Of a DNA stretch of 64,000 bases, positions 474 to 62,846 are shown piece after piece (position 1 is the first letter of the stretch; the number at the start of each line of letters is the position of its first letter). The stretch lies in contig CBDCXR010000004.1 of the NCBI GenBank assembly GCA_965223845.1, positions 384,001-448,000 of the forward strand, given 5' to 3'. The notes below the pieces were generated by a model. It saw nothing but the letters and a program-made list of their open reading frames with translations, ran no database searches and was not told the origin of the DNA. Source of the DNA: Planctomycetota bacterium (GTDB taxonomy: Bacteria; Planctomycetota; UBA8108; SXIK01). Position numbers and translations under genes: made by a program.

Positions 474-680
474 CTCGCGCCTCGGCGGGGATCGCGGGCG
501 GCGATCGGTGAATCCGGTGAGCCGCTTTCGGTGCCCGGAACTCCGCGCGAATTCCCGTATGGCTCGGTAGAATGGCGGGCTGGTTGCCCGTGGGCAGACC
601 GATCCGCCTGGGTACGGGAGAAGATTGTGTATCCGACTAGAGAAGCATTCGAGCCGCGAGGTGTCCGCGGCCGAGGGGTG

Positions 681-3600
681 GTGAACGGCCGCGTTAGGGC
701 CGCTCGAATTGCGTTCATGGCCGCGCTCGCATTCGGGATGTCGATTCTCGATCTCGGCGCGCAGACACTCGTCGTCACGGAGTTCCTGACGTCGAACACG
801 AACGGTCTGCTCGATGCCGACGGCGACGATTCAGACTGGGCCGAGTTCCACAACCCGACGGACGCCCCGATTTCGCTCGACGGCTGGGGCGTCACGAACG
901 ACCCCGCCGATGCATTTCAGTGGGTGTTTCCCGCGATCGATCTCGCTCCAGGCGGGTTTCTCGTCGTGTTCGCATCGGGGAAGGATCGCGCGGACCCCGA
1001 GGAAGAGCTCCACCTGAACTTCAGATTGTCGCCGGACGGCGAGTACTTCGCGCTCGTGCGGCCGGACGGCGTCATCGAGCAGGAATTCAATCCCTATCCG
1101 ATTCAGCGGCGGAACGTCTCGTACGGAATCGGCCAGCTCGTCGAGACGACTCCGTTCATCGTCGAGGGCGGGAGCGCGCGCGTTTTCGTTCCGCAGAACG
1201 GCACGGTCGACGCTACGTGGACGACGCGTGAATTCAACGACGCCGGCTGGACGCTCGCCGAGTTGCCCGCGGGATACGACACCGAGGACGGCGGGCCGAT
1301 CATCGATGAAGTCAACCTCGCTCGGGACGGTGTCGCGACGCAATCGTCGACGGCGTTTGGGGGAGATGCGGCGCGGGCGATCGACGGGAACACGAGCGGG
1401 AGTTACGGCAGCAACTCGATCACGCACACCGGGAACAACGCCGGCTCGTGGTGGCAGGTCGATCTCGGCGAGGAGCACCCGCTCGGTCGCATCGTCCTTT
1501 GGAATCGTCTCGATTGCTGTAGTCAGCGGCTGTCGCGGTTTCGCGTGACGGTCACCGATGGCCTGGGGGAAGTGTCGTTCACGGAGGACTACTTCGAGGA
1601 TGGCGGGTTTCCCGCGAACCAGGACTTCGAGATCGAGCTTCCGATCGGGACGCGCGGAGAGATCGTTCGAGTCACCAAGTTCGCGGCTGACTCTTCGGGA
1701 AGTCACTACCTCTCGCTCTCGGAAGTCCAGGTATTCGGCGGCCCGGCCGGGCTCGGGTCGCTCCTCGCGACGGATCTCGAAGCGGAGATGAACGGCGTCG
1801 GATCGTCGCTCTACCTGAGGATTCCTTTCGACTTCGCCGGCGGAACGGAAGTCGAGTTCCTGAATCTCAACATGCGGTACAACGACGGCTTCGTCGCCTA
1901 CCTCAACAACGAGGAGATCGCGCGCGCGAACGCGCCGGGGGCGGTCGCATGGAACTCCGAGGCGACCGCCGAGCGGTCCACTGCCGAGTCGACCGCGTTC
2001 GAGACGTTCAGCGCGTCGAGCGCGGCGCTCAGGGTTGGCGAGAACGTACTCGCCGTGCATCTTCTCAACGTCGCTTCCGACGACACGAATGCGTTCGTCG
2101 ATATCGCGCTCGAAGGCGTCACGATCGAAGACGCGGGCAATGTCTACTTCACGACGCCCACGCCGGGTGGCGCGAATCCCGAAGACGGCCTCGCGGGACT
2201 CGTCGCCGACACCACGTTCAGCGTCGACCGCGGTTTCTACGAGAACCCGATCGAAGTCGAGATTTCGACCCTCACGCCGGGCGCAGTGATCCGCTACACG
2301 ACGGATGAATCCGAGCCGACCGCGACCCACGGAGAGGTCTACTCGGGTCCGATCCAGATCGACACGACCACCGTCCTCCGCGCGGCCGCGTTCCGGAGCG
2401 GATTCGCTCCGACGAACATCGATACGCACACGTACATCTATCTCGACGACGTCATCGCCTCGAGTGTGATGGATCCCGCGATCACCGGGCACGCCGTGTA
2501 CGGCCCCCAGATGCGAAACGCGCTCACCGATCTCCCCACGATTTCCCTCGTCTCGGAAGACGCGTTCAACGACGGGACCGAAGTCAGTACGTCGATCGAG
2601 TTCATCCGCCCGGAGGACGGCTCCGGCTTTCAGGAGAATCTCGGCGTGAAGCGCTTCGGCGGTGCGTTCACCAATTTCGCGAAGAAGAACTTCCGAATGT
2701 ACTTTCGGAGCGAATACGGCGTCCCGAAGCTCAAGTACCGGCTCTTCGAAGGACACGACCGAGGGATCCGAGCGGTCGAGCGATTCGATCAGCTCGAGCT
2801 GCGCTCGGGATCGCACGACATGAACCAGCGCGGGTTCTACATGTCGAACCGATTCACCGACGACACCATGCTCGACATGGGGAACGTCAATCCTCACGGA
2901 CAGTTCGTCCACCTCTATATCAACGGCACCTACTGGGGTCAGTACCACCTGCGCGAGCGGTGGAACGCCGACATGCTCGCCCAGTATCTCGGTGGCGAGA
3001 AGGAAGACTACGAGGCGATCAACGGCAACTGGAACGTCGGCGGCTGGGCGGAGCCCGGAAGTCCGTACGACGGCGACGGCTCGGCGTGGTCGCGCATCAA
3101 ATCCCTTCGGAACAACTACGAAGCGGTGCGGCGCTACCTCGACGTCGGTCACTACGTCGATTTCATGCTCATGTTCATGTTCGGGAATTCGGAGGACGAG
3201 TACCGCTGCGTCGGCCCGACGTCACCCGGGAGCGGGTTTAAGTTCTTTCTGAACGACGCCGACGGCTTTACGCGGAGCGCGGGGAATCGCACCGTGAGGC
3301 AGCAGCCCGGCCGCGAGGATGGAGACGGACCGGGAAGCATCTTCAGCATGCTGCTTGCGGAAGGTCACCCGGACTACAAGACTCTCCTCGGCGATCACGT
3401 CCACCGGCACTTCTTCAACGACGGCCCGATGACGCGCGCGAAGAATATCGCTCGGCTCGAGGAACGCTGTGACCAGGTTCGCCGCGCGTTCTACGCTGAG
3501 GCGGCGCGGTGGGGCTACCGGAGCCCGACATCGTGGGAGTCGGCGAAGAACAGTTACATCAACACGGTGCTCTCGACGCGCACGGAGACCGTGATCTCGC

Positions 3601-5222
3601 AGTACCGGAGCGCCGGATTCTACCCTCGACTCGAGGCGCCGGAGTTCGCCCAGCACGGCGGGCGCATCCCCGAGAGCTACCAGCTCACGATCACCGCTGA
3701 GGACGGGACGGTCTACTACACGCTCGACGGCCGCGATCCCCGGCTGCCGGGAGGAACCGTTCTCCCCGACGCGCTCGAAGCGGGCTCGCTCGAGAAGATC
3801 AAGCTCGTCTCCGAAGGCGCAAGCGCTCGGTGGCTCGTCCCGTCGGACGGCTCCCTCGGACTCGACTGGACGGCGTCCGACGGCTTCGACGACGGTAGCT
3901 GGAACGTCGGGGCGACGGGATTCGGCTACGAACGCTCGTCGGGTTACGAAGACCACATCGCGACGGACGTTGAAGCGGCGATGTACGACGTCAATCCGTC
4001 GATTTACCTCCGGATCCCGTTCGATCTCGACGGCGCACCCGCCGGGACGCTGAAACTGCTCGCGAAGTACGACGACGGATTCGTCGCCTACCTAAACGGA
4101 GTCGAGATTCTGCGAATCAACGTCGACGAGGAGACGGCGTGGAATTCGAGCGCGCTATCGAGCCACAGCGATTCGCTGGCGGTGATCTTCGAGGAATTCG
4201 ACATCCCGGAGCACGTCGGTCTCCTCCGAAACGGCGAGAACGTTCTCGCCTTCCAGGCGATGAACCGGACGACGACGAACGGCGATTTCCTCTTCTCGCC
4301 CGAGCTTCTCGTCGCTCGTCCGCTCGAAGGGCAGGAAATCATCCTCGATCGTACGACGCACGTGAAGTCGCGTGCCTTCGACGGTGTCAACTGGAGTGCA
4401 CTCAACGAGGCGACGTTCGTCCGGCCGTCGCTTCGAATCACCGAGGTCATGTATCACCCCGAGGATCCGGGTCCCGGCGTGGACGACGACGATGTCGAAT
4501 TCGTCGAATTCCAAAACGTGATGGACCACGCGATTTCTCTCGACGGGATTCAGCTCCGCGGCGGGATCGAGTTCGATTTCGGCGAGGGCGACGTGCCGGG
4601 GCTCGATCCGGGTGAGGTCGTCATCGTCGTCGGCGACCGGGACGGCTTCGAGGAGGTCTACGACACGACCGGAATGCTGATCGCGGGCGAGTTCCGCGGG
4701 AATCTTCACAACGCGGCGGATCAGGTGACCCTCATCGAGCACGGCGATACGACGATCGACTTCGTCTACGATGACCGGTGGTATCCGGAAACGGACGGCG
4801 GCGGATTCTCGCTCGTCATCGTGGATCCGCTAGGCGAGCTCGAGAATTGGGGACTCACCGCCGACAGCTGGCGAGTGAGCTCCGATCGAGGGGGCTCGCC
4901 GGGCGTCGACGAGACGGGCGGTTTCACGGGCGGACGTCAGTTCGTCGGTGACTCGAATCAGGACGGCTCGGTGAACATCGCCGACGCCGTGTCGCTTCTT
5001 CAGCGACTCTTCGGCGGAGGTGCGATCGACGCGCTGCCCTGTGATGGCGAAACGATGACGGACGGCGGGAATCTCCGCGTGTTCGACATCAACAGCGACA
5101 GCGGCGTGAATCTCGCGGACGCGGTCTACCTTCTCAACTATCTCTTCGCCGACGGCTCGCCTCCCGCGGCGGGAACTCAGTGCCAGCGGATCGAAGGCTG
5201 CGGGAGCGCGTGCGTCCGGTAG
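681..5222 (+). CDS. Secreted lamin-tail / F-type lectin / CotH-kinase-like / dockerin multidomain protein (paralog A1)
   Basis: ORF 531..5222; start moved to GTG 681, which precedes a signal-peptide-like segment. Motifs: LTD (VVTEFLTSN..DWAEFHN), F-type lectin (H-x26-RLDCCSQR), Fn3-associated/chitobiase-like (IRYTTDESEP), CotH-like core (VHLYINGTYWGQYHLRE), second LTD (LRITEVMYHP), C-terminal paired GDxNxDG loops. Confidence 0.85.
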   Translation: MNGRVRAARIAFMAALAFGMSILDLGAQTLVVTEFLTSNTNGLLDADGDDSDWAEFHNPTDAPISLDGWGVTNDPADAFQWVFPAIDLAPGGFLVVFASGKDRADPEEELHLNFRLSPDGEYFALVRPDGVIEQEFNPYPIQRRNVSYGIGQLVETTPFIVEGGSARVFVPQNGTVDATWTTREFNDAGWTLAELPAGYDTEDGGPIIDEVNLARDGVATQSSTAFGGDAARAIDGNTSGSYGSNSITHTGNNAGSWWQVDLGEEHPLGRIVLWNRLDCCSQRLSRFRVTVTDGLGEVSFTEDYFEDGGFPANQDFEIELPIGTRGEIVRVTKFAADSSGSHYLSLSEVQVFGGPAGLGSLLATDLEAEMNGVGSSLYLRIPFDFAGGTEVEFLNLNMRYNDGFVAYLNNEEIARANAPGAVAWNSEATAERSTAESTAFETFSASSAALRVGENVLAVHLLNVASDDTNAFVDIALEGVTIEDAGNVYFTTPTPGGANPEDGLAGLVADTTFSVDRGFYENPIEVEISTLTPGAVIRYTTDESEPTATHGEVYSGPIQIDTTTVLRAAAFRSGFAPTNIDTHTYIYLDDVIASSVMDPAITGHAVYGPQMRNALTDLPTISLVSEDAFNDGTEVSTSIEFIRPEDGSGFQENLGVKRFGGAFTNFAKKNFRMYFRSEYGVPKLKYRLFEGHDRGIRAVERFDQLELRSGSHDMNQRGFYMSNRFTDDTMLDMGNVNPHGQFVHLYINGTYWGQYHLRERWNADMLAQYLGGEKEDYEAINGNWNVGGWAEPGSPYDGDGSAWSRIKSLRNNYEAVRRYLDVGHYVDFMLMFMFGNSEDEYRCVGPTSPGSGFKFFLNDADGFTRSAGNRTVRQQPGREDGDGPGSIFSMLLAEGHPDYKTLLGDHVHRHFFNDGPMTRAKNIARLEERCDQVRRAFYAEAARWGYRSPTSWESAKNSYINTVLSTRTETVISQYRSAGFYPRLEAPEFAQHGGRIPESYQLTITAEDGTVYYTLDGRDPRLPGGTVLPDALEAGSLEKIKLVSEGASARWLVPSDGSLGLDWTASDGFDDGSWNVGATGFGYERSSGYEDHIATDVEAAMYDVNPSIYLRIPFDLDGAPAGTLKLLAKYDDGFVAYLNGVEILRINVDEETAWNSSALSSHSDSLAVIFEEFDIPEHVGLLRNGENVLAFQAMNRTTTNGDFLFSPELLVARPLEGQEIILDRTTHVKSRAFDGVNWSALNEATFVRPSLRITEVMYHPEDPGPGVDDDDVEFVEFQNVMDHAISLDGIQLRGGIEFDFGEGDVPGLDPGEVVIVVGDRDGFEEVYDTTGMLIAGEFRGNLHNAADQVTLIEHGDTTIDFVYDDRWYPETDGGGFSLVIVDPLGELENWGLTADSWRVSSDRGGSPGVDETGGFTGGRQFVGDSNQDGSVNIADAVSLLQRLFGGGAIDALPCDGETMTDGGNLRVFDINSDSGVNLADAVYLLNYLFADGSPPAAGTQCQRIEGCGSACVR

Positions 5223-5518
5223 TCGACGTCCATCGGGGTCATGTTCGCCGAATGTCCGTCCGCCGCCTCCGATACCGACGCTCGTCCGCCGGAAGAGAGG
5301 ATCTGTCCATTGCGGCGAGCGCGATTCGGTGCTGAAATGAAAGTGGAGACGTTGGGTCGAACGGTAGACTCCACACCAAGACGATTCTGATCGCTTTGAG
5401 AGACCGGGCCGGGGTCCGTTCGGATCATCGCCCCCGGAAGGGTACATCGTAGACGAGCGTCGCTCTCGGGAGAGGGCGTCCTCAGGTTGAGCGAGCGAAC
5501 GGCTCGTAGGAGGGACCG

Positions 5519-7564
5519 ATGCGTCGATGGATCGCGCCCGCGCTAGTGGCGGGAACTCTCGTTCCGAACTTGTTGTTCGGTGCACTTATCAATGTCGCCC
5601 CCATCGGGACGGCGACCCAGTCGTCGGATTTCGGGGCGGGACAGTTTCCTGCGAGTCTCGGGATCGACGGGAACACGGGGAACTTCACTCACACCGCGGC
5701 CGGAGACACGCCCGCGACGTGGCAGGTCGATCTCGGCGTCGCGCTCCCGATCGAGGAGATCATCCTTCACAACCGGGACAACTGCTGTGGCACACGCCTC
5801 CGCGACATCACGGTGCAGATTCTCGACGCGGCGGAGGCGGTCCAGTGGGAATCCGACCTTCTCAATCCCGAGAACGCGGACGGCGCCCCCGAGACGATTC
5901 CGCTCGATATCGTCGCCCTGAACGGAAGCGCAGTGACGGGCTCCATCGTGCGCGTGATTCGTACGCCGGATCCGGACTTTTCGGGGAATCCCGGAGTCGA
6001 AAACGGTGACGAGAGCGACGTGCTCTCCCTCGGCGAAGTCGAAGTCTTCGCCGACTCGGCGAGCCTCCCCCTCACGATTACGAGTCAGCCGCAGGGCCGC
6101 CGAGTCTACGTCGGAACCTGTGAGGTCTCCTTCAACGTCGGCGTCGCGGACACGGCAGACGTCACGTACCAGTGGCGGAAGGACGGCATGGACCTCGCCG
6201 GCGAGACGGGCGCCTCGCTCACGATCGAAAACGTGCAACCGGACGACGCCGGAACGTACGACGTGGTGGTCACTCGGAACGCCGAAGAGGTCACGAGCGA
6301 CGGCGCCGTCCTCGATGTCCCGGGGCGAAACCTCGCGATCTTCGGCTCGGCGTCCCAGACGACCACCGGATTTGGTGGGAACGCCGAGCGCGCGAACGAC
6401 GGCAACACGAACGGTGCCTACCCTGCCGGCTCGGTCACGCACTCGAACGGCGACGAGATGGGCTCGTGGACCGTGCAGCTCTTCGGCGAGAGCACGATCG
6501 ACTCGATCGTCGTCTGGAACCGGACGGACTGCTGCTCGCATCGGCTGATCAACACGAAGGTCTCGGTTCTCGATGCCGGTGGGGCCGAGCTCGAAAGTCA
6601 CGAGATCACCGAGGACACGACGGGCGTCGTGAACGTTCCGATCGTCTTCGCGGCGCCGGTGCCCGGCGCGGCCGCCGTTCGCGTCCAGCGAACCGCCGCC
6701 GATGGCGAGGGCGCCAACTGGCTCTCCCTCGCTGAGGTCGAGGTCTTCGGCGACGGTCCGTTCCCCGTCGACGATCCGAACCTCACGCAGCGCTGCGGCG
6801 TGAGCGTGTCGCAGTCGACGCAGCTCGGCGGATTCGCGCCGGAGCTCGCGATCGACGGCAATCTCGGGAACTTCACCCACACGCTCGGGAGCGACGACGC
6901 GGCCCAGTGGGAGATCGACTTCGGCGAGGTGATCGACATCGGCCAGGTCATTCTCTACAACCGAACGAGCTGCTGTGGTTCGCGCCTTCGCGATATCACG
7001 GTCGAAGTCCTTGCGGGCGATGTGGTGGTCTACACCTCGGAGCTCCTCAACGCCGAGAACGCGCTCGGCGCGTTCCCGAACGGTCCGCCCACGCTGGACG
7101 TCGACATCATCGAGGACACCGGCGGCACCGTTCAGGGCGACAAGGTGCGCGTTTCGCGCGCCCCGGATCCGGACCTCTCGGGTTCCGGCGGACAAGGGAA
7201 CGCGGACGAGGGGAACGTCCTTTCTCTGGGCGAGGTGCAGATCTTTGCTGCGCCGGTCCTCAGCCAGATCACGGGCGACTGCAACCAGGACGGCGAGCTC
7301 AATATCGCTGACGTCCTTTGCGGCGTCGGCCTCCTCTACCCGGGATTCCTGCTTCTCAGCGAGCCGGCGAACTTGCCGTGTTCCGGAGACCTCGGGAACC
7401 TCGCGGTGCTCGACACCAACGGCGACCTCGCCCTCGGCAACGCCGATCTGGCTCACCTCGCGATGTTCCTCTTCGGGGGTGGCGCGGCGCCGAACGGTGG
7501 CGCGGGCTGCCGCCTCATCGATAAGGGATCGTCGGGCTGCGACACCAATCCCGGCTGCCTCTAG
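5519..7564 (+). CDS. Secreted protein with three F-type lectin (discoidin-fold) domains, an Ig domain and a dockerin-like tail (paralog B1)
   Basis: RBS AGGAGG before ATG; hydrophobic N-terminus; three THT..NRxxCCxxRL..LSLxEV repeats; Ig I-set motif YQWRKDG..DAGTYDVVV; GDCNQDG and DTNGD loops at the end. Confidence 0.85.
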   Translation: MRRWIAPALVAGTLVPNLLFGALINVAPIGTATQSSDFGAGQFPASLGIDGNTGNFTHTAAGDTPATWQVDLGVALPIEEIILHNRDNCCGTRLRDITVQILDAAEAVQWESDLLNPENADGAPETIPLDIVALNGSAVTGSIVRVIRTPDPDFSGNPGVENGDESDVLSLGEVEVFADSASLPLTITSQPQGRRVYVGTCEVSFNVGVADTADVTYQWRKDGMDLAGETGASLTIENVQPDDAGTYDVVVTRNAEEVTSDGAVLDVPGRNLAIFGSASQTTTGFGGNAERANDGNTNGAYPAGSVTHSNGDEMGSWTVQLFGESTIDSIVVWNRTDCCSHRLINTKVSVLDAGGAELESHEITEDTTGVVNVPIVFAAPVPGAAAVRVQRTAADGEGANWLSLAEVEVFGDGPFPVDDPNLTQRCGVSVSQSTQLGGFAPELAIDGNLGNFTHTLGSDDAAQWEIDFGEVIDIGQVILYNRTSCCGSRLRDITVEVLAGDVVVYTSELLNAENALGAFPNGPPTLDVDIIEDTGGTVQGDKVRVSRAPDPDLSGSGGQGNADEGNVLSLGEVQIFAAPVLSQITGDCNQDGELNIADVLCGVGLLYPGFLLLSEPANLPCSGDLGNLAVLDTNGDLALGNADLAHLAMFLFGGGAAPNGGAGCRLIDKGSSGCDTNPGCL

Positions 7565-7710
7565 TCGAACGGCCTGAGGGATGTTGACGAGTGAGGGGCG
7601 ACCCGGGACGATCGGGTCGTCCCTCACTCTTTTTGGTTCGAGTTTGGGGCATGGCGGGGCGGACTCAGGGATCTAGATCCGTGGACAGGCCGCCGGCGAT
7701 AGGAGTTTGC

Positions 7711-10700
7711 GTGGAATCGAGCTGCAGTCACGTTCGGGTGGGGTTGCGGGTCCTCGGCTATTCGATCGCGGCGGTCGCGTGTCTCTGGCGGCCCTTGGCC
7801 GCTCAGAGCGACGTCCGCATCACCGAGTTTCTCGCCGTGAACGATGGCATCGTCGTGGACGAGAACGACGACGCGTCCGACTTCATCGAGGTTCACAATG
7901 CGGGAGTCTCGGCCGTGGATCTCGACGGCTGGTTCCTCACCGACGATCCGGCCGTGCTTCTTTGGCAGTTTCCGGCGGTGACTCTGGCACCGGGTGATTT
8001 CCTCCTCGTCTTCGCGTCCGGCAAGGATCGCCGCAATCCCGATTCGGAACTCCACACGAACTTCCGGCTTGCGGGGGATGGCGACTATCTCGCGATTGCG
8101 GAGCCGGACGGAACGATCGTCCACGAATTCGCGCCCACGTTTCCCACCCAGCGAGAGGATGTCTCGTACGGAATCGGGCAGACCGTCGAGGCGACGGAGC
8201 TGGTCGGCGAGCGCACGGCGGTCCGCGTGCTCGTTCCCTCGGGTGGCGGGGACGGCCTCGACTGGACCGAGCGAGTTTTCGACGACGCGAGTTGGCGCGC
8301 GGGGACGACCGGTGTCGGCTACGACACGGACGACACGATCCAGCCGGCCCCGGGTGAGTCGCGCAATCTCGCGATCGAAGGACTCGCGTCACAGTCGTCG
8401 ACCCTGGGCGGGTTCGTCGCCGGACTCGGGATCGACGGCGACCCGGGCAATTTCACGCACACGGCCGCGGGCCAGAATCTACCGGCGACGTGGGAGCTCG
8501 ATCTCCAGGGGACGTTTCCGATCGCTTCGATCGTCCTCCACAACCGCGACGGTTGCTGCGCGTCGCGGCTTCGCGACATCACGGTGTTCGTTCTCGATGA
8601 GAGCGGCAACAACACGCTCTACGAGAGCGACCTCCTCAACCCGGAGAACGAGCTCGGCGGACCGGACGAGATCACGATCAACCTCGTCGAGGAGCTCGGT
8701 GGCGGCGTGAACGGCGGCATCGTCCGCGTAGTCCGCACTCCCGATCCCGATCTTTCGGGTACCGGCGGCGCGGGCAACTCCGACGAGCCGGACGTGCTCT
8801 CCCTCGGCGAAGTCGAGGTGTGGGAGGGCGCGAGCGGATACGGCCGGTTCATCGGAACCGACGTCGAGGCGGAGATGTCCGGCGAGCACGCGACGGCGTA
8901 TCTGCGGATACCGTTCGACGTCGCTGATCCCGCTGATTTCGATCTGCTGACGCTCAGGATGCGCTACGACGACGGCTTCGTCGCCTACGTCAACGGGATG
9001 GAGGTCGCTCGTCGAAACGCCCCCGACTCGCCCGCTTGGAACTCGTCGGCATCGGGATCGCGGTCCGATTCTCTCGCCGTGGTGTACGAGACGATCAACG
9101 TGACGAGCGGGATCGACGCACTCGTCGCGGGGACGAATATCCTCGCGATCCACGGGCTCAACACGAGCACGGGCAGCTCGGACTTCCTGATCGCTCCTCT
9201 TCTCGAGGGCGCGAGTCTCGTCGGCGGCGGCGAAGTGTATTTCTTGGAGCCGACACCGGGCGCCCCGAACGACAAGCCGGGCTTCGCGGGATTCGTGGGC
9301 GACACGACGTTCAGTCTCGATCGCGGTTTTTACAGCACGCCGTTCGACGTCGAGATCACGACGAGCACGGAGGGCGCCTCGATTCGCTACACGTTCGACG
9401 GGACGGAGCCGACGCCGACGCGAGGCTTCGTCTATTCCGGCCCGATCACCATCGACACGACGACGAATCTTCGGGCGATCGCGTACAAGTCGGGCCTCGA
9501 GCCGTCGAACGTCGATGCGCAGACGTACATTTTCCTCGACGAGATCGTCGTCCAGGATCGTCAGGCCACGCTCGACCGCGGATTCCCCTCGAGTTGGGGA
9601 AGCACGTCCGCCGACTACGGCATGGATCCCGATGTCATCGGACAGAACGGTACGGATCGCTACGGCGGGAAATACACGCAGACGATCAGGGACGATCTTC
9701 TCGCCGTGCCGACCGTATCGATCGCGATGGACATCGACGATATGTTCGGCTCGGGCGGCATCTACACGAACTCGGGAAGCCGCGGCCTCTCCTGGGAGCG
9801 TCCCTGCTCGTTCGAGATCATCTATCCCGACGGTCGGCGCGGAAAGCAGGTGAACTGCGGCGTGCGCATCCAGGGCGGAGCGTTTCGGAGTCACGGACTC
9901 ACGAAGAAGCACTCGCTTCGCTTCCTCTTCAAGGCGATCTACGGGCCGACGAAGCTGCGCCATCCCTTTCTCAAGGGCGGCGGCGCCGAGAGGTTCGACA
10001 CGCTGACGTTCCGCGCGAACTCGAACGACGGCTGGCAGTGGAGCGGGGCGGGCGACAAGCCGCTTTACGTGCGCGATTCTCTCGGGCGCGAGATCATGCT
10101 CGCCATGGGGCAGCCGGCCTCGCACGAGACGTTCGTCCACCTCTTCATCAACGGGGTCTACTGGGGTCTCTACAACCCGGTCGAGCGGCCCGATCACTCC
10201 TTCTCGTCGATCTACGTTGCGGGAGAGAAGGAAGAGTGGGATGCGATCAGCAACGGCTCGGCGACGAACGGCGACAAGAACGCGTGGAATACGCTCGTCT
10301 CGCGAGCGCGGGCAGGACTGTCGAGCAACACGGCGTACTTCTCGCTCTGCGGAAAGGACCCGGACGGGACGCCGAACCCGGCGCTCGAGACGTTCATCGA
10401 CCCGGTCAACTTCGCCGACTACATGATCACGAATCTCTATCTCGGAAACACCGACTGGCCGAACAAGAACTACTGGATGGGGCGGCGGCGCGTCGATGCG
10501 ACCGGCTTCAAGTTCTACATGTGGGACTCGGAGTGGTCGCTCGATCTGCGTTCGAGCGTTAACGAGAACCGTCTCGGAGTGAACGTCGGCATCGCGGAGC
10601 CGTGGCCGTTCATGCGGCAGAACGCCGAGTTCCGCCTCCTCGTCGCCGATCGCCTGCACAAGCATTTCTTCAACGGCGGTCCGCTCTACGTCGATCCGGC

Positions 10701-12537
10701 GCGTCCGGGGTGGGATCCCGCGCATCCCGAACGGAACATGCCGGCCTCGCGCTTCATGGAGCTCATCAATATCGTCTCCCGCGCGGTGGTCGCCGAATCG
10801 GCGCGTTGGGGGGATCAGCATGCCTCGACGCCGTACACCCGGGACGAGCACTGGGCGCGCGAGCGGGACGATCTCCTCGCGAACTACTTTCCGCGGCGGT
10901 CGGCGATCGTGCTCAATCAATTCAAGAGCGCCGGGCTTTACCCGAACGTCGACCCGCCGATCTTCAGCCAGCACGGCGGTCTCATCGACCTCGGTTTCGA
11001 GCTCGCGGCACAATCGGAAGAAGGTTCGGTGTACTACACGATCGACGGCTCCGATCCGCGTCTCGTCGGCGGTGACGTGTCGCCGACCGCAGGCGAAGCG
11101 GGTGCGGTGGAACGAACCACGCTCGTCGACGTCGGAGACACCGTTCGTTATCACGTGCCGGCGAACGGCGCGCTCGGGATTTCCTGGACGAGCCGCACGT
11201 TCGCCGACGGCGGCTGGATGGTCGGGACGACGGGAGTGGGCTACGAGCGCTCGTCGGGATACGAAGACTTGATCTCGACGGACGTCGAGAGCGTTCTCTA
11301 CGACCAGAACACGACGATCTATCTCCGCATTCCGTTTCAGTTCTCGGGCGCCCGGCCGCCGCTTCTCAAGCTACTCATGAAGTACGACGACGGATTCATC
11401 GCGTATCTGAACGGTCAGGAGATCGCATCCGCCAATGTGCCCGACGATCCGGATTGGAGTTCGGGTGCGCCGTCGAGTCATTCCGATTCACTCGCGACCG
11501 TCTTTCAGGAGTTCGACGTCAGCGAGCACGCCGGGGCGCTAGTCGACGGCGAGAACGTCCTCGCGATCCACGCGATGAATCGGACGTCGACCAACGGTGA
11601 TTTCCTCATCGTCCCGCAGCTCGACGCGGCGGTTCCGCTCGAGGGTCAATCGATCGTCCTCGACGAGACGACGACGGTCCGGGCTCGGGTGCTCGCCGGC
11701 GAGACGTGGAGCGCACTCAACGAGGCCACGTTCGTTTACGCGCCGCTTCGCATCACGGAGGTGATGTACCACCCGGTGGATCCGGGGCCGGGATTCGACG
11801 ATGACGACATCGAGTTCGTCGAGGTGAAGAATATCGGCTCGGCGCCCGTCGATCTCGCCGGGGTGACGATCTCGGGGGGAATCGAGTTCGACTTCACGGA
11901 CGGAGACGTCGCGACGCTGCTCCCCGGTGACTTCGTGGTCGTCGTCAATAACTTCGAGGGTTTCGAAGCCGTGTACGATCCGGCCGGAATCCAGATCGCG
12001 GGGGAATTCGACGGCAATCTAGGGAACGACAGCGAAGTGCTCACTCTGAGCGCTCACGGATTTCCCGTGCTCGAATTCGCCTACTCGGACGCGTGGTACC
12101 CGGAGACCGACTCGGGAGGACATTCGCTCGTCATCGCGGATGCGGAGGCCGATCTCTCCGAGTGGAATGTCGCGGACGGCTGGGTCCCGAGCGCTGAGAT
12201 CGGCGGTTCGCCCGGCACGGAGGACGGGGATTTTGTCCCACGCGGCTGGCAGATCTCCGGCGACGCGAACCAGGACGGGAGCGTCGACATCGCCGACGCG
12301 CTCTCGATGCTTCGGCGTCTGTTCGGCGGTGGCGTCCTCGCGGCACTCCCGTGCGAAGACGGGGCCCTCCCGACGGAGGGCGCGAACGTAATTGTCTTCG
12401 ACGTGAACGAGGATGCAGGGTTCAATGTCGGAGACGCGGTCTTTCTGCTCAACTACTTGTTTGCCGAGGGGCCGCCACCCGGCGGTGGGTTGGGTTGCCA
12501 GCGTGTTGAAAACTGTGTGAGCGTGTGCCGGCCGTAG
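7711..12537 (+). CDS. Secreted lamin-tail / F-type lectin / CotH kinase / dockerin multidomain protein (paralog A2)
   Basis: ORF 7591..12537; start moved to GTG 7711 after AGGAG. Same domain order as A1; CotH-type motifs GNTDWPNKNY and FYMWDSE are present; dockerin-like GDANQDG and DVNED loops. Confidence 0.85.
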   Translation: MESSCSHVRVGLRVLGYSIAAVACLWRPLAAQSDVRITEFLAVNDGIVVDENDDASDFIEVHNAGVSAVDLDGWFLTDDPAVLLWQFPAVTLAPGDFLLVFASGKDRRNPDSELHTNFRLAGDGDYLAIAEPDGTIVHEFAPTFPTQREDVSYGIGQTVEATELVGERTAVRVLVPSGGGDGLDWTERVFDDASWRAGTTGVGYDTDDTIQPAPGESRNLAIEGLASQSSTLGGFVAGLGIDGDPGNFTHTAAGQNLPATWELDLQGTFPIASIVLHNRDGCCASRLRDITVFVLDESGNNTLYESDLLNPENELGGPDEITINLVEELGGGVNGGIVRVVRTPDPDLSGTGGAGNSDEPDVLSLGEVEVWEGASGYGRFIGTDVEAEMSGEHATAYLRIPFDVADPADFDLLTLRMRYDDGFVAYVNGMEVARRNAPDSPAWNSSASGSRSDSLAVVYETINVTSGIDALVAGTNILAIHGLNTSTGSSDFLIAPLLEGASLVGGGEVYFLEPTPGAPNDKPGFAGFVGDTTFSLDRGFYSTPFDVEITTSTEGASIRYTFDGTEPTPTRGFVYSGPITIDTTTNLRAIAYKSGLEPSNVDAQTYIFLDEIVVQDRQATLDRGFPSSWGSTSADYGMDPDVIGQNGTDRYGGKYTQTIRDDLLAVPTVSIAMDIDDMFGSGGIYTNSGSRGLSWERPCSFEIIYPDGRRGKQVNCGVRIQGGAFRSHGLTKKHSLRFLFKAIYGPTKLRHPFLKGGGAERFDTLTFRANSNDGWQWSGAGDKPLYVRDSLGREIMLAMGQPASHETFVHLFINGVYWGLYNPVERPDHSFSSIYVAGEKEEWDAISNGSATNGDKNAWNTLVSRARAGLSSNTAYFSLCGKDPDGTPNPALETFIDPVNFADYMITNLYLGNTDWPNKNYWMGRRRVDATGFKFYMWDSEWSLDLRSSVNENRLGVNVGIAEPWPFMRQNAEFRLLVADRLHKHFFNGGPLYVDPARPGWDPAHPERNMPASRFMELINIVSRAVVAESARWGDQHASTPYTRDEHWARERDDLLANYFPRRSAIVLNQFKSAGLYPNVDPPIFSQHGGLIDLGFELAAQSEEGSVYYTIDGSDPRLVGGDVSPTAGEAGAVERTTLVDVGDTVRYHVPANGALGISWTSRTFADGGWMVGTTGVGYERSSGYEDLISTDVESVLYDQNTTIYLRIPFQFSGARPPLLKLLMKYDDGFIAYLNGQEIASANVPDDPDWSSGAPSSHSDSLATVFQEFDVSEHAGALVDGENVLAIHAMNRTSTNGDFLIVPQLDAAVPLEGQSIVLDETTTVRARVLAGETWSALNEATFVYAPLRITEVMYHPVDPGPGFDDDDIEFVEVKNIGSAPVDLAGVTISGGIEFDFTDGDVATLLPGDFVVVVNNFEGFEAVYDPAGIQIAGEFDGNLGNDSEVLTLSAHGFPVLEFAYSDAWYPETDSGGHSLVIADAEADLSEWNVADGWVPSAEIGGSPGTEDGDFVPRGWQISGDANQDGSVDIADALSMLRRLFGGGVLAALPCEDGALPTEGANVIVFDVNEDAGFNVGDAVFLLNYLFAEGPPPGGGLGCQRVENCVSVCRP

Positions 12538-12632
12538 CTCTACGCGCAGCGGACGGACACCACGCCTGGGTCTTGAGTCGCGTATCGCGACATCGTCTCG
12601 AGTGTCGAGCTCGACGCTCGAAAGGAGGGTAC

Positions 12633-15554
12633 ATGAGCGTGCAACGTTGGAGTTTCGCTCTTTCGTTTGTAGTCGCGTTGGCCGCCTCGGTCGACGCCCA
12701 AGTGAATATCGGCGCGTTTGGAACGGCGACGCAGTCGTCCGATTTCGGTGGTGGTCAGTTTCCGGCCTCGCTCGGAATCGACGGGGACCTCGGGAACTTC
12801 ACGCACACCGCGGCGGGACAGTTCCCGGCGACGTGGCAGGTCGCGTTCGACGACGAGTTTGCGATCGAACAGATCGTGCTCCACAACCGAGACAACTGCT
12901 GCCAGTCGCGCCTTCGCGACGTCACCGTCTATATCCTGAACGAGCCGCTCGATGTCCTCGATCCGATCGCGATCGAAGAGATCGACGAGGATCTCATCGT
13001 GTTCGAATCGGATCTGCTCAACGAGCTGAACGAGGGCTTTGAGTACCCCGGCGGCCCCGAGACGCTCACTGTCGACGTCGCGGGCGAGAACGGCGGCGCC
13101 GCGAGCGGCGTGGCGGTCGTGGTTCAGCGGACAAACGATCCGTTCCTCGATGGCTCGGGAGGCCAGGGAAACGCCGACGAAGCCGACGTGCTCCAGCTCG
13201 GTGAGGTCGAAGTCTTCGCGACAGTTGACGATCTGCCGCCGCGGATCACCCTCCAGCCGGTGAGCGTGCGCGCCTCCGCCGGCGGCACGGCGACGTTTGT
13301 GGTCGAGGCGATCGGTTCCGATCCTCTCACCTACCAGTGGGAGAAGAACGAGGAAACTCTCGACGGCGCCACGGATCCCACGCTCATTCTCACCGACCTC
13401 ACGATGGAAGATTCCGGGGATTACTCCGTGATCGTCATGAACGAGGTCGGACAGGAGACGAGCGAGGTCGTCACGCTCACCGTGACTCCGCCGAACCTCG
13501 CCCTCTGCGGTGTCGCCTCGCAATCGACGGAAGGCTTTGGTGGGGCGCCGGGCCGAGCGATCGACGGCAACACGAGCGGCGTCTACCCTCAGGGATCTGT
13601 GACGCACACAGCGACCGGCGACCTCATGCCCTGGTGGGAAGTGTCCCTGATCGAGAATGCGACCATCGAAGAGATCGCGATCTGGAACCGCACCGATTGC
13701 TGCGTTGAGCGGCTCTCGAACTTCGCGGTCGTTCTCCTCAACGACGCGCGAGAGGAGGTGTGGAGTGACGAGTTCTTCACCGATGGGACGTTCCCGGACA
13801 CGACGATCGATCCGTTCATCGTCGAGGTCGACGGCGTCGAGGCACGCACCGTTCGTATCGAGAAGCTCGACGTTATCGCGGGGAGTGAGTGGCTCTCCCT
13901 CGCCGAGGTCGAAGTCTTCGGCGGCGAAGCGGCTTCGTGCGAAGTCCCGGAGGATCCCGATCTCACCGGGCGCCCCGGCGTGCTCGTCCGTCAGAGCTCG
14001 CAGCTCGGCGGGTTTATCGCCGAGAACGCGATCGACGACAACTTCGGCAACTTTACGCACACGCAGGCCGGTGTCGGTCTGCCGGCGACCTGGGAGATCG
14101 ATCTCCTCGAGAACTTCGACATCGCTGAAATCATCCTCTACAACCGAACGAGCTGCTGCGGTTCGCGTCTCCGCGATATCACCGTGTTCATTCTCGATTC
14201 GTGGGAAGACGATGCGCAGGTTCTCTGGGAGAGTGAACTGCTCAATCCAGAGAACGAGCTCGGCGAGTTTCCGACCGGTCCCGCGGAGCTGCGGCTCGAC
14301 ATCGTCGAGCTGAACGGCAGCCCGGTGAGCGGACGCGTCGTGCGCGTCGTGCGCGAGCCGGACGACGACCTTTCGGGAAGCGACGGCCAGGGAAACAATG
14401 ACGAAGCGACCGTCCTTCAGCTCGGTGAGGTCGAGATCTTCGAGCTTCCGGACTGTCCGGATGCGGGGAGCGCCGATGACGGCGACACCCACTGCTCGAA
14501 TCTCGCGATCGCGGGTCCGGATGACGAGGGTCCCGGTGACTACACGGTCACCGCGGATGGCGCCGACGACACCGACGATCTCGTCCAGTACACCTTCACG
14601 GCCGTGAATCAGGCGAGTGGGACGACTCTGACCGTCGGTCCGCAGGGAGTCGGTTCCGCCGTGTTCGCGCTCACGCTCGGCACGTGGGACATCTCGGCCG
14701 AGGTCGACGACGATCTCCGTTGTCCGGATGCCGCGGACGACATGGCGTGCGCGACCCAGACAGTCGAGGTGATCGATCCGACCTGTGTCGAAGGTGAGGC
14801 GTGCAACGTCGCCCCGAAGGGCGTGGCGGGTCAGTCGACGACCGGATTCGGCGGCACGGCGGATCGAGCGATCGACGGCAATACGGACGGGACCTACAAC
14901 AACGGCTCCGTCACCCACACGGCCGGGGACGATCCCGAGCCGACGTGGGAAGTCATCCTCGACCAGTCCTACGACGTCGAGCGCATCGTCCTTTGGAATC
15001 GGGTCGACTGCTGCAGTGCGCGGCTCACGAACTTCACGGTCGCGCTTCTCGACGCCGAGGACGACGAAACTTGGAGCGACGAGTTCTTCACCGACGGCTT
15101 CGAGTTCCCGGACACGGCGGTCGACGGCTTCGAGATCGAGGTCGGAGCGATCGGAACGAGGGTGCGGATTCAGCTCCTCAGCGATCACGCCGGATTCGAT
15201 CCCGCGCAGTTCTTCCTCTCGCTTGCCGAGGTTCAGGTCTACGGCCTTCCGGCGGGCGATCCCCCGGGAGACGAGATCCGCTACGGCGACACCAACAACG
15301 ACGGTGGAGTGAACATCGCGGATGCGATCTTCATGCTGAACAACAAGTTCGGCGACGGCGGCGACCCCAGTTGTGTGGAGACGGCCGACGTCAATGCCGA
15401 CAACAGCTACAACATCGCGGACGCGATCTTCTTGCTGAACCGCCTGTTCGGCGACGGTCCGCCTCCAATCGACGGCGCTGGCCCGGACGGGGATCAGTGT
15501 ACGGCGCTGAATCCGGAGGGTTCGCTCGGGTGTGCGCTCTACGATAAGTGTTGA
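12633..15554 (+). CDS. Secreted protein with four F-type lectin domains, an Ig domain, a Cys-rich acidic domain and a dockerin-like tail (paralog B2)
   Basis: RBS AAGGAGG before ATG 12633; signal peptide MSVQRWSFALSFVVALAASVDA; four NRxxCCxxRL repeats; Ig motif YQWEKN..DSGDYSVIV; GDTNNDG and DVNAD loops. Confidence 0.85.
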   Translation: MSVQRWSFALSFVVALAASVDAQVNIGAFGTATQSSDFGGGQFPASLGIDGDLGNFTHTAAGQFPATWQVAFDDEFAIEQIVLHNRDNCCQSRLRDVTVYILNEPLDVLDPIAIEEIDEDLIVFESDLLNELNEGFEYPGGPETLTVDVAGENGGAASGVAVVVQRTNDPFLDGSGGQGNADEADVLQLGEVEVFATVDDLPPRITLQPVSVRASAGGTATFVVEAIGSDPLTYQWEKNEETLDGATDPTLILTDLTMEDSGDYSVIVMNEVGQETSEVVTLTVTPPNLALCGVASQSTEGFGGAPGRAIDGNTSGVYPQGSVTHTATGDLMPWWEVSLIENATIEEIAIWNRTDCCVERLSNFAVVLLNDAREEVWSDEFFTDGTFPDTTIDPFIVEVDGVEARTVRIEKLDVIAGSEWLSLAEVEVFGGEAASCEVPEDPDLTGRPGVLVRQSSQLGGFIAENAIDDNFGNFTHTQAGVGLPATWEIDLLENFDIAEIILYNRTSCCGSRLRDITVFILDSWEDDAQVLWESELLNPENELGEFPTGPAELRLDIVELNGSPVSGRVVRVVREPDDDLSGSDGQGNNDEATVLQLGEVEIFELPDCPDAGSADDGDTHCSNLAIAGPDDEGPGDYTVTADGADDTDDLVQYTFTAVNQASGTTLTVGPQGVGSAVFALTLGTWDISAEVDDDLRCPDAADDMACATQTVEVIDPTCVEGEACNVAPKGVAGQSTTGFGGTADRAIDGNTDGTYNNGSVTHTAGDDPEPTWEVILDQSYDVERIVLWNRVDCCSARLTNFTVALLDAEDDETWSDEFFTDGFEFPDTAVDGFEIEVGAIGTRVRIQLLSDHAGFDPAQFFLSLAEVQVYGLPAGDPPGDEIRYGDTNNDGGVNIADAIFMLNNKFGDGGDPSCVETADVNADNSYNIADAIFLLNRLFGDGPPPIDGAGPDGDQCTALNPEGSLGCALYDKC

Positions 15555-15583: not shown

Positions 15584-15628
15584 AAGGGGCCGCCCTGCTT
15601 TTACGAGCGGGGCGGCCTTTTTTATTTT
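15584..15628 (+). terminator. Rho-independent terminator closing the secreted-protein array
   Basis: Stem GGGGCCGCCCTGCT / AGCGGGGCGGCCTT with a 6-nt loop, followed by a T-rich tail, ~30 nt after the stop at 15554. Confidence 0.8.
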
Positions 15629-15643
15629 GGACGTGGAGTTTTA

Positions 15644-15760
15644 CACGAAGGGCGCGAAGGTTCGCGAAGGCGGACGAAGGGGGAGGGAGAGGGGGAGGGG
15701 GAGAGGGGAGAAGAGGGAATAGAGATGAGAAGAGGGGAGAGAGAGAGAGAGGAAGATGGG
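15644..15760 (+). repeat. (C[A/G]CGAAG)n short tandem motif followed by a polypurine tract, copy 1
   Basis: CACGAAGGG CGCGAAGGTT CGCGAAGG, then ~80 nt of almost only G/A; a related copy lies on the minus strand at 60701..60781. Confidence 0.6.
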
Positions 15761-17050: not shown

Positions 17051-18514
17051 TCAGGCGACGACTTCGTTCAGCACCCGCCCTCCGGTGTCCGTCAGCCGCC
17101 GCAGCCGTCCGGCGTGCAGGTAGCGCAGCTTCTCGTCCTCTAGCCCCATGAGGTGAAGAATCGTCGCGTGAACGTCGCGCACGTGAATCGGGTTTCCCAC
17201 GGACCGCAGGCTGAAGTCGTCGGTCGCACCGGCCGTCGCACCGCCCTTCACTCCGCCGCCGGCGAGCCACATCGCGAGTGCGTAGGAGTTGTGCTCGCGT
17301 CCGGGGTTGTTCCCGAGTCCGCCGTTTCGAAACGGCGTCCGTCCCATCTCCGACGCCCACACGACGAGCGTATCGTCGAAGAGTCCGCGCTGCTTGAGGT
17401 CCGCGAGGAGACCCGCAATCGGACGGTCGACCTCGCGGCAGTGTTTGATCATTCCGCCCTTTACGTTCCCGTGGTCGTCCCAGCTGTCGCCGGTGATCTG
17501 GACGCCGTGGATGAGGAGCGTGTAGCGAACACCGCGCTCGACGAGACGGCGCGCGAGAAGGCACTGGCGCCCGAATCCAGCCGTCGCCGAGTCGTCGAGT
17601 CCGTACAGCTCGCGGACGTCCGCCGGCTCGGACGAAATGTCGACGATCTCCGGTGCTTCCGTCTGCATGCGGAACGCGAGCTCGAACGCGCTGATTCTCG
17701 CTTCGAGCTCGTGTGCGCCGGGTCGATCGGAGAGATGCCTTCGGTTGAGCCACTCGAGTAAGTCGAACTCGCGTCGCTGCTCGGCACGAGTGAGGCCTGG
17801 GGGTGGCTCGAGATTGAGGATCGGCGTTCCGGTCGGGCGGAGTAGCGTTCCCTGGTAGGCCGCCGGAAGATAGCCGTTCGCCCAGACGGCGGCACCGTTC
17901 ACCGGGGCGCCGCGCGGATCCTGGATGACGACGTATCCCGGCATGTTGCGGTTCTCGCTCCCGAGTCCGTACGTGACCCACGAGCCGACGGACGGACTCC
18001 CGGGGAACTGGCTCCCCGTCGTCACGTGGAGCGTCGACGGGCCGTGGTTTTGATTGTCGGTCTTGATGCCGTGAATGAAGGCGAGGTCGTCGACGTGACG
18101 GGCGAGGTGCGGAACGAGCTCGGAGAGATAGCGGCCGGATTCCCCGTGACGCGCGAACTCGAACGGGCTGCCGATGCAGGCGTGCGGGAAGCGGAGACGT
18201 CCCTCGAGCTCTCCGGAGACCCCGAGGTCGCGCGGCAGCGGCTTTCCGTGGAGACGCCGGAGCGCTGGCTTGTGCTCGAAAACGTCCATCTGGCTGACGC
18301 CGCCCTGCATGAAGAGAAAGATGCAGTGCTTCGCTCCGGCGGATCCGTGAGTGACGCGAGCCGCGAGCGGGTCGACGGATTCGGCGCCGGCCTCGTCGGC
18401 GAGCATCGCGCCGAGTGCGAGCGCGCCAACTCCGTTCCAGGAACGATGCAGAAACTCCCGCCTCGACTCGTAGGCGCTGAAGGCGCGGAGGGGGCGATCA
18501 TGGGGCGTCGTCAT
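17051..18514 (-). CDS. DUF1501 family protein
   Basis: SRREFL twin-arginine-like N-terminus; AKHCIFLFMQGGVSQMD, CLLARRLVERGV, WDDH, EMGRTP, HVRDVHATILHLMG; directly downstream of DUF1553. Start set at ATG 18514. Confidence 0.9.
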   Translation of the reverse strand: MTTPHDRPLRAFSAYESRREFLHRSWNGVGALALGAMLADEAGAESVDPLAARVTHGSAGAKHCIFLFMQGGVSQMDVFEHKPALRRLHGKPLPRDLGVSGELEGRLRFPHACIGSPFEFARHGESGRYLSELVPHLARHVDDLAFIHGIKTDNQNHGPSTLHVTTGSQFPGSPSVGSWVTYGLGSENRNMPGYVVIQDPRGAPVNGAAVWANGYLPAAYQGTLLRPTGTPILNLEPPPGLTRAEQRREFDLLEWLNRRHLSDRPGAHELEARISAFELAFRMQTEAPEIVDISSEPADVRELYGLDDSATAGFGRQCLLARRLVERGVRYTLLIHGVQITGDSWDDHGNVKGGMIKHCREVDRPIAGLLADLKQRGLFDDTLVVWASEMGRTPFRNGGLGNNPGREHNSYALAMWLAGGGVKGGATAGATDDFSLRSVGNPIHVRDVHATILHLMGLEDEKLRYLHAGRLRRLTDTGGRVLNEVVA

Positions 18515-18531
18515 GGCGTCGTTCGGTCGAT

Positions 18532-25615: not shown

Positions 25616-25672
25616 CTCGGTGTCCTTCGATTCGCACCCCGGACGCGATTCGCCGATTGCCACGTCGACTTT

Positions 25673-53708: not shown

Positions 53709-53903
53709 CGTTCTGATCCTTTCCCCAAGGAATACTTGGTGTCGCGGAGCCCGGAACCACTCCGCGTCTCCACAAGAGGGAGGCGCAGTCTGCGGTCCCG
53801 AGAGCTCAAGAAAAGGATCGTGGTCGACGAGACGCCGAGGCTCGGCGAGCGGGCTGAACAGGTCCCGATCGACACCGGTCGGTCGCGGGAAACTCACCGA
53901 CTC

Positions 53904-54099
53904 GTCATTTGAACCCGAATTATTCATGAGCCATCTACTACGAGCGCGTATGCATCCCGTCTGGACGGCGTTACCGAATCGGATTCGATCCTCAATGAGT
54001 GAAACACTCGCCTCCGGTCGAATCCGATTCGGTGCCTTGCCAGACGGGCGCCTCCGCGCTCTCGCTACGATGTTCATGAATAATCCGGGTTTGAATGAC
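53904..54099. repeat. ~196-nt rod-like imperfect palindrome (MITE-like element or structured ncRNA)
   Basis: Five nested complementary blocks pairing from both ends to a GAGTG-AAA-CACTC apex (see findings). Confidence 0.75.
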
Positions 54100-62772: not shown

Positions 62773-62846
62773 GTTCGCCTCCCTGGTTGCTGATCTTCGC
62801 CCTTCCGTTTCCGAAGGCGGCTGGGCCGGCCGCCGAGTCGAGCGAG

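Follow-up and report, generated by a model that had tools for sequence, protein, structure and literature searches.

Why, in a planctomycete genome, do genes for secreted CotH proteins stand next to genes for multi-lectin proteins that carry the same type of lectin domain? The question arises from a 64,000-nucleotide stretch (hereafter the window, C4:384001-448000 on contig CBDCXR010000004.1; G+C 63-69%) of a Planctomycetota genome of 7.93 Mb in 4 contigs (GCA_965223845.1). On the + strand, positions 531-15554 of the window are filled by four long co-oriented open reading frames (ORFs) in the order A1, B1, A2, B2; the A genes encode CotH-scaffold proteins with one F-type lectin domain (FLD) each, and the B genes encode polylectins. 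We lean slightly towards the view that this cassette is a ligand-matched set of four dockerin-tagged extracellular proteins, in which the lectin type would aim CotH and the polylectins at one glycan. The narrower proposition, that the A and B proteins are functionally coupled and ligand-matched, we consider likely.

Pfam assigned to both A1 and A2 an LTD, one F5/8 type C domain, CHB_HEX_C_1/Fn3_assoc, CotH, a second LTD and Dockerin_1, to B1 three F5/8 type C domains and an I-set Ig domain, and to B2 four F5/8 type C domains, an Ig domain and Dockerin_1; NCBIfam held no family for any of the four (Table 1). Module boundaries were taken from Pfam and custom hidden Markov models (HMMs). Putative signal peptides, judged by eye from the translations, were present at 4/4 N-termini, each with a basic segment, then a hydrophobic one, and a cleavage-like site rich in Ala. 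A first-pass annotation of this DNA had described four co-oriented large secreted proteins with nine FLDs and a dockerin on each. The ORF list, translations and N-termini agree with the first part of that description, and the nine FLDs were recovered in two ways, by the motif NRxxCCxxR[LI] (A1 one, B1 three, A2 one, B2 four) and as nine of the 21 PF22633 matches in the genome. The domain orders it gave also stood up to Pfam and the custom HMMs; the dockerin of B1 did not, scoring 14.1 bits against a cut-off of 22.9. To that description we add two copies of an unassigned jelly-roll module, here called Mid, that flank CotH in the A proteins.

The pairing of an FLD-bearing CotH protein with a polylectin recurs in this genome. 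HMMs built from the window identified about 65 CotH-scaffold ORFs (PF08757 had 70 matches), members of a very large planctomycete family with the layout LTD, variable module, jelly roll, CotH, jelly roll, LTD and Cys-stapled dockerin-like tail. An FLD is found in only three of these ~65 genes, A1, A2 and a third of the same architecture (A3, C4:824586-829628), and a multi-FLD gene comes next in 3/3 cases, A3 being followed by B3 with three FLDs of the beta subtype (described below) and a dockerin tail. Our own HMMs detected FLDs in eight ORFs genome-wide (A1, B1, A2, B2, A3, B3, B4 and one other), and 15 of the 21 PF22633 matches fall in the three A-B loci and B4. As a separate observation, the multi-FLD gene B4 (L001:10777-13659) directly follows a gene whose secreted product of 1890 aa combines 11 FG-GAP repeats with a PPDK_N domain (ATP-grasp, phosphoenolpyruvate-synthase-like) and a dockerin tail (L001:5015-10684, which is G000:C4:343015-348684), a second type of ATP-binding domain paired with an F-lectin protein.

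A-B adjacency is also conserved in other genomes. B1 had matches in 29 of 41 related genomes (E ≤ 1e-5), and full-length B2-like genes (E ≤ 1e-30) were present, patchily, in 19 of the 59 genomes of the class, in families f2, f3 and f5, and in none of the three remaining genomes of the family to which the window belongs. We annotated with custom HMMs 15 loci chosen from the listed B1/B2 search matches and five (L025-L029) from a B1-only search, which returned 36 loci, most matched in the Ig domain only. In this sample, which makes the counts illustrative, a co-oriented multi-FLD gene adjoins eight of the 13 CotH genes that carry an FLD (L003, L004, L005, L006, L007, L011, L013 and L029), and 10 of 14 B-type genes adjoin an A gene, with L010 cut.

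The partnership appears to be old. A1 is 55.5% identical to G007c98, A2 51-56% to seven proteins and A3 45-48% to G014c76 and G005c152; A1 and A2 are 43.6% identical to each other, and A1, A2 and A3 are each closer to proteins of other genomes. Judged by these identities, the three are old paralogs with orthologs in other families. The first-pass annotation had taken the array for a duplicated two-gene unit; a recent duplication is at odds with these values, and with the different tail classes of B1 and B2.

These tails fall into three classes. T1 (C.R.EGC...C) is carried by 21 CotH ORFs and nine others, four of them LTD/Mid scaffolds, and 18 aligned T1 tails share four invariant Cys. T2 (...LGC.LYDKC) occurs in 12 ORFs, including B2 (ending LGCALYDKC) and B3, and T3 (GDCNQDG...LLYPGF) in 10, including B1; neither is found on CotH ORFs. 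The PF00404 cut-off of 22.9 bits is passed by the tails of A1, A2 and B2 (26.9 bits for the last), and the B1 tail, which matches Dockerin_1 over the first Ca loop only, is a member of the coherent T3 family. Of the genes with T3 tails, 8/10 have a scaffold gene no more than 5 kb away, as do 5/12 of those with T2 tails, against 22/166 for other tails. Because their tail classes differ (T3 against T2), B1 and B2 are, on this sequence comparison, two different partner classes and not plain duplicates.

The same arrangement recurs with other modules in place of the FLD. In 10 of 65 scaffold ORFs the variable module is shared with a non-scaffold neighbour (E < 1e-8), and partners with T2 or T2-like and T3 tails are found in four loci, namely the window, C4:947-964k, C4:1821-1834k and C4:2627-2644k, where they carry two to six module copies each. 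At C4:2627-2644k Laminin_G_3 replaces the FLD in an A-A-B-B array, with two CotH proteins of one copy each followed by three- and two-copy proteins. In relatives, Laminin_G_3 A genes are paired with B genes in four of five loci (G014:C196, B-A-A; G005:C1, B|A; G007:C159, A,A|B,B; G019:C24, A-A-B), the fifth, G016:C50, having B-B only within the 16 kb fetched. Each complete Laminin_G_3 cassette contains two different A classes by catalytic-loop motifs, like A1 and A2.

Could this pattern be a historical accident, with lectin modules spread locally by duplication or recombination and without functional coupling? The genome is rife with tandem paralogs and module shuffling, and in a quick tree of 75 FLDs (SH-aLRT, approximate likelihood ratio test, support only) the FLD of A3 and that of its ortholog branch from within those of their B neighbours. 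In the same tree, however, the A1- and A2-lineage FLDs cluster with their orthologs and not with the neighbouring B domains, and the FLD positions of B proteins are orthologous across genomes. Adjacency persists across orthologous lineages at 45-58% identity, and two different A genes with T2-like and T3 partners are found again as a set built on an unrelated lectin fold, a set that relatives also retain. We therefore regard an accidental origin as very unlikely.

Which glycan might a ligand-matched set recognise? The solved structures that A2 matches best are all F-type lectins (3cqo at 6.6e-8, 4gwi/3le0 at ~2e-5, then 2j22 and 1k12). The nine FLDs divide into two subtypes, separated in the tree with support 100. 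The alpha subtype (n=4; A1, B1-F2, B2-F2, B2-F4) reads AIDGNTxG...THT...WNRxDCCxxRL, and the beta subtype (n=5; A2, B1-F1, B1-F3, B2-F1, B2-F3) reads GIDGxxGNFTHT...NR[DT]xCCxxRLRDITV and has a longer C-terminal loop. Between them A1 and A2 represent both subtypes, as does each B protein by itself. The published fucose motif is HX24RXDX4(R/K) and the Ca motif h2DGx (PMC5712786; papers are cited here by PMC number for excerpts of their text). The basic triad of H, R and final R is conserved in 9/9 domains, and the acidic residue of RxD is present in four of nine, all alpha. The Ca motif is found as AIDGN, GIDGN or GIDGD in seven domains, and ANDGN and AIDDN, one each, are off by one residue. 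The basic triad, the CC motif and the h2DGx-type Ca motif are shared with eel agglutinin (1k12), FBP32 (3cqo), the FLD of lectinolysin (3le0) and SpX-1 (2j22); the FLDs here differ from these in an H-R spacing of X26-28 instead of X24 and, in the five beta domains, in the long C-terminal loop and the missing acidic residue. We consider it reasonably likely, from these motifs, that the alpha-type FLDs bind fucose-type sugars. FLDs have already been noted in Planctomycetes and prokaryotic F-type lectins are mostly single-domain proteins (PMC5712786), compared with which three or four FLDs in each B protein are unusual.

The genes of each pair are probably transcribed together. The first-pass annotation had the array closed by one terminator; a hairpin with a U-run follows B1 and another follows B2, and for both 0/200 shuffles fold equally well. 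No comparable hairpin was found in the gaps within pairs (A1-B1, z -0.40 and +0.83 for the two halves; A2-B2, z -1.25), and a sigma-70 promoter scan gave 0 sites. Because of these terminators and the lack of anything comparable inside the pairs, the array is best read as two predicted bicistronic operons, A1-B1 and A2-B2. Immediately 3' of the B2 terminator and before the next gene lies a GA-rich polypurine tract of ~90 nt (window 15675-15760).

The tails may serve for assembly into a larger structure. Our own HMM placed a dockerin-like module in 282 ORFs; it lies no more than 40 residues from the C-terminus in 240, of which 180 have three Cys in the last 30 residues; Dockerin_1 matches in the genome comprise 145 listed out of 421 candidates. 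For the complementary module, PF00963 (Cohesin) had 11 weak matches genome-wide, four above the cut-off, and a lineage-specific HMM, seeded on the Pfam matches and run for two rounds, found about 65 cohesin-like modules in 45 ORFs, up to three in each, most of which are also dockerin-tailed. A complex prediction of a 660-aa protein with three cohesin-like modules (C4:1049122-1051101) with 18 T1 tails scored 0.01 against a mark of 0.32 and, the cohesin having been chosen arbitrarily, has no bearing either way. From sequence, we rate the chances that the tails dock on cohesin-like modules as evenly balanced.

Dockerin-like tails, cohesin-like modules and a sulfatase 8.5 kb away might also point to a classical cellulosome-like complex that degrades fucosylated or sulfated glycans. 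Such a complex consists of dockerin-bearing carbohydrate-active enzymes (CAZymes) on a multi-cohesin scaffoldin. Proteins with up to three cohesin-like modules do occur elsewhere in the genome, but A1-B2 and the scanned neighbouring ORFs contain no CAZyme domain, whether of a glycoside hydrolase (GH), a lyase or an esterase. The sulfatase (24074-25663, -) is on the other strand, beyond unrelated DUF1501 and PSCyt2/PSD1 genes, which are planctomycete hallmark genes (17051-21444, -). Where two sulfatases and a GH had at first been noted nearby, we thus find a single opposite-strand sulfatase and, in the scanned ORFs, no GH. We consider a degrading complex extremely unlikely, and a polysaccharide-utilisation reading is not supported by the surroundings.

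Whether the set has an enzymatic output depends on CotH. PF08757 scores 50.8 bits in A1 and 71.5 in A2 (cut-off 23.8), and a profile of ten CotH segments from the genome, A1, A2 and A3 included, matches the Bacillus cereus CotH structures 5jd9/5jda with E 6.7e-31; with the A2 sequence alone no CotH structure was reached at E 0.01. B. subtilis CotH is inactivated by changing D228 or D251 (PMC7821199), the equivalents of which lie in QNFDG and PWDYD in the 5jd9 alignment. The catalytic Asp pair, Lys and Glu are all present in canonical form in A2 (LGNTDW...MWDSE) and A3 (GNAWDW...CWDSD); in A1 the loop (GNSEDEY...LNDADG) is five residues shorter and W is replaced by N. We aligned 25 A-type proteins from several genomes, 16 with FLDs and nine with Laminin_G_3. 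Lys, Glu and the second Asp are each conserved in 25/25 and the first Asp, as aligned, in 21/25, the four exceptions forming the A1 lineage (A1, G007c98, G014c420 and one Verrucomicrobiales protein) with the same variant loop. This loop, GN[SC]E-[DA]E[YH]R with WD -> ND (window 2451-3920, L006, L011, L028), is conserved and not decayed. The A proteins resemble Bacillus CotH in fold (by profile), in Lys, Glu and (in full in A2 and A3) the Asp pair, and in a gene beside a possible substrate gene. Bacillus CotH is a single-domain protein of ~360 aa that acts in the mother cell, whereas the A proteins are multidomain proteins of 1500-1650 aa with putative signal peptides.

Alternatively, CotH might be a non-enzymatic binding or structural module, as proposed for the CotH surface proteins of Mucorales, and the cassette an adhesin or glycan-capture set. 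Extracellular ATP is generally scarce and the catalytic loop is altered in the A1 lineage; moreover, the role of CotH proteins as cellulosome components has been left between structural and regulatory (PMC12484212). Set against this is the invariance, across several families, of Lys, Glu and the metal-binding Asp (25/25), with the catalytic Asp in 21/25, a pattern expected under selection for catalysis. We judge a non-enzymatic CotH distinctly unlikely, and catalytic activity, as far as conserved residues can indicate it, to be marginally favoured.

If CotH is active, the B polylectins may themselves be the substrates of the adjacent CotH, with phosphorylation tuning assembly or sugar binding and the FLD of A reaching B or its glycan. 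Kinases of the Fam20C-type fold family, which is only distantly related to CotH, offer a functional analogy. Caenorhabditis elegans FAMK-1, a secreted Fam20C-type kinase, phosphorylates C-type lectins (PMC6829671); it is an atypical kinase of the secretory pathway with lectin substrates, although it is eukaryotic, acts in the Golgi lumen and shows no gene adjacency. In Bacillus, cotH adjoins cotG, whose product CotH phosphorylates (PMC7821199), and the tight A-B operons and conserved catalytic residues fit a kinase-substrate pair. By eye, however, B1 and B2 contain no Ser-rich repeats of the CotB or CotG kind, A orthologs occur without an adjacent B, and a kinase-substrate pair alone leaves the matching lectin type of A and B unexplained. 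We consider it unlikely as the full explanation.

The reading we favour is that of a ligand-matched set. Since the enzyme and its partners invariably share one lectin type, we infer that they target the same glycan, which here most likely bears fucose. The B proteins, being multivalent, would capture or cross-link this glycan with high avidity, and the single-FLD A proteins would deliver a CotH phosphotransferase to it. CotH might then phosphorylate a protein or a sugar hydroxyl belonging either to the captured material or to the B partner, and the three tail classes would plug the proteins into the cell's cohesin-like modules, forming a network of the 'planctosome' type.

Several points weigh against this reading. 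The matched-partner pattern is seen in only eight of 65 scaffold ORFs, in six loci. In relatives, four of 13 A orthologs are without a multi-FLD neighbour (L015, L016, L017, L028; L014 is cut by a contig end) and three of 14 B genes are without an A neighbour (L008, L009, L012), so A-B pairing is not obligatory, and these counts come from a biased sample of loci hand-picked from B1/B2 matches. Five of the nine FLDs (beta) lack the acidic residue of RxD and the H-R spacing is 26-28 and not 24; because of the absent residue and altered spacing, the sugar of the beta FLDs may be one other than fucose. The catalytic loop is shortened, with WD -> ND, in A1 and its lineage, and we know of no obvious ATP supply for a secreted bacterial kinase outside the cytoplasm. 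The tail classes are defined by our own regular expressions, and searches with B1 and B2 recover the same groups. The cohesin-like identity depends on weak Pfam seeds, only some of them above the cut-off, and the iterated HMM may have drifted.

In the literature searched we found no description of CotH-lectin gene sets, in line with the first-pass remark that no characterised system has this organisation. A search with the FLD and Mid of A2 returned 1800 proteins at E ≤ 1e-10 among 7999 scored, indicating that the fusion of FLD and CotH is widespread. Most of the best 120 matches combine CotH, LTD and F5/8 type C domains; they come from Pirellulales, other Planctomycetota and Verrucomicrobiales, and their names go no further than 'lamin tail domain-containing protein', 'CotH kinase family protein' or 'hypothetical'. 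Forms of ~2200 aa among metagenome proteins add a second FLD and I-set Ig domains. These were considered as B+A fusions ('Rosetta stone' proteins) and rejected, their Ig domains following the LTDs on reading of the sequence.

The closest known systems include cellulosomal proteins. In Clostridium (Acetivibrio) thermocellum, CseP (Cthe_0044, CotH) and Cthe_0239 (LTD, LTD, Fn3, CotH) are listed as cellulosomal components (PMC6083626, PMC12484212) which, like the A proteins, are secreted, dockerin-bearing and built from LTD, Fn3-like and CotH domains, and their function is likewise obscure. The A proteins differ in their FLD, two extra jelly-roll modules, Cys-stapled tail, lectin-matched partner genes and planctomycete host, and A1-B2 with the scanned neighbours has no CAZyme link. 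A non-cellulosomal cohesin/dockerin complex, the 'planctosome', has been proposed for freshwater Planctomycetes (PMC6461901); it too involves planctomycete secreted proteins with LTD, dockerin and cohesin and no link to cellulose, but the model, in the excerpt cited, features peptidases and is without CotH, lectin-matched gene sets or tail classes.

Dockerin-bearing CotH proteins have long been known in cellulosomes without an assigned role (PMC12484212), and the cassette offers a handle on the function of extracellular CotH. Giant secreted proteins that lack an explanation abound in planctomycete genomes; here and in related genomes, CotH proteins with a lectin in the variable slot often stand beside multivalent partners with the same module and two tail classes. 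The natural sets of multivalent bacterial F-type lectins, in two subtypes, could also serve as glycan probes. A more ambitious proposal would be a modular four-part planctomycete machine, in which two different CotH phosphotransferases and two polylectins are held in fixed geometry on cohesin-like scaffolds by three orthogonal Cys-stapled dockerin classes (T1, T2, T3), are retargeted when all the genes exchange their lectin fold in concert (among FLD, Laminin_G_3 and at least two unassigned modules), and phosphorylate captured glycoconjugates outside the cytoplasm, possibly on sugar hydroxyls. In this complete form the proposal is speculative and, in our estimate, rather improbable; if true, it would give secreted bacterial CotH proteins their first defined role.

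Table 1. Features of the A1-B2 array, in window coordinates
Feature	Position	Strand	Description
A1	681..5222	+	secreted CotH-scaffold protein; longest frame starts 531, likely start GTG 681 with GAGGGG upstream; putative signal peptide, LTD, FLD-alpha, Mid, CHB_HEX_C/Fn3_assoc, CotH (variant catalytic loop), Mid, LTD, T1 dockerin tail
A1 FLD	1317..1748	+	alpha; H-X26-RLDCCSQR, Ca motif AIDGN
A1 Mid copy 1	1689..2210	+	galactose-binding-like jelly roll
A1 CotH	2451..3920	+	Pfam 2.3e-13; Lys, Glu and second Asp present; loop shortened (GNSEDEY), WD -> ND
A1 Mid copy 2	3900..4388	+	custom HMM
A1 dockerin-like tail	4947..5219	+	class T1, ends CQRIEGCGSACVR; Pfam 25.1 bits
B1	5519..7564	+	secreted polylectin; ATG 5519 preceded by ribosome-binding site (RBS) GGAGGG; FLD-beta, Ig (I-set), FLD-alpha, FLD-beta, T3 dockerin-like tail
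Intrinsic terminator after B1	7589..7640	+	18-bp stem (7589-7629) then UUUUU; -38.1 kcal/mol, z -5.37
A2	7651 or 7738..12537	+	secreted CotH-scaffold protein; start ATG 7651 or GTG 7738, longest frame from 7591; LTD, FLD-beta, Mid, CHB_HEX_C/Fn3_assoc, CotH (canonical catalytic motifs), Mid, LTD, T1 tail
A2 FLD	8359..8874	+	beta; H-X28-RDGCCASR, Ca motif GIDGD
A2 CotH	9610..11235	+	Pfam 1.1e-19; motifs LGNTDW..NKNY and MWDSE
A2 dockerin-like tail	12241..12534	+	class T1; Pfam 24.7 bits
B2	12633..15554	+	secreted polylectin; longest frame from 12525, ATG 12633 preceded by RBS AGGAGG; FLD-beta, Ig, FLD-alpha, FLD-beta, ~120-aa Cys-containing module, FLD-alpha, T2 dockerin tail
Intrinsic terminator after B2	15590..15630	+	GC-rich stem (~15590-15616) then UUUUUUAUUUU; -35.9 kcal/mol, z -6.70

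The Mid module of the A proteins is ~170 aa long, with one copy on each side of CotH by custom HMMs. Its model (mean predicted local distance difference test score, pLDDT, 76.1) gave modest Foldseek matches to GH2 and rhamnosidase jelly rolls (E ~5e-4, query TM-score, TMq, 0.33-0.47), and 'galactose-binding-like' is used for Mid as a label of the predicted fold, with no function implied. Pfam at E ≤ 5 gave nothing for Mid, for the short segment after the N-terminal LTD or for the Cys-containing module of B2. This 122-aa module lies between the third and fourth FLD (window 14466-14831, residues 648-769 counted in the longest frame); at the corresponding point, B-type proteins of relatives show a gap.

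Further large or tailed proteins are encoded in the window. Two are giant Ser/Thr kinases, one a 1717-aa Pkinase with WD40/PQQ beta-propellers (40257-45410, -). The other (48518-51880, -; 1120 aa) joins a Pkinase to an FGE-sulfatase (SUMF1-like) domain, and its match to peptidase S9 is weak. For two ORFs at 58591-60696 (-) and 60898-62772 (-), the sole family assignment is a weak Dockerin_1 match at the C-terminus (17.6 and 16.9 bits), and our own HMM placed dockerin tails at window ~52707-54125, 58594-60714 and 60901-62874 (C4:436707-438125, 442594-444714 and 444901-446874). A 176-aa MafB19-like/dCMP_cyt_deam_1 deaminase (25673-26203, -; E 6e-35) is, by its size, probably a TadA-type tRNA deaminase.

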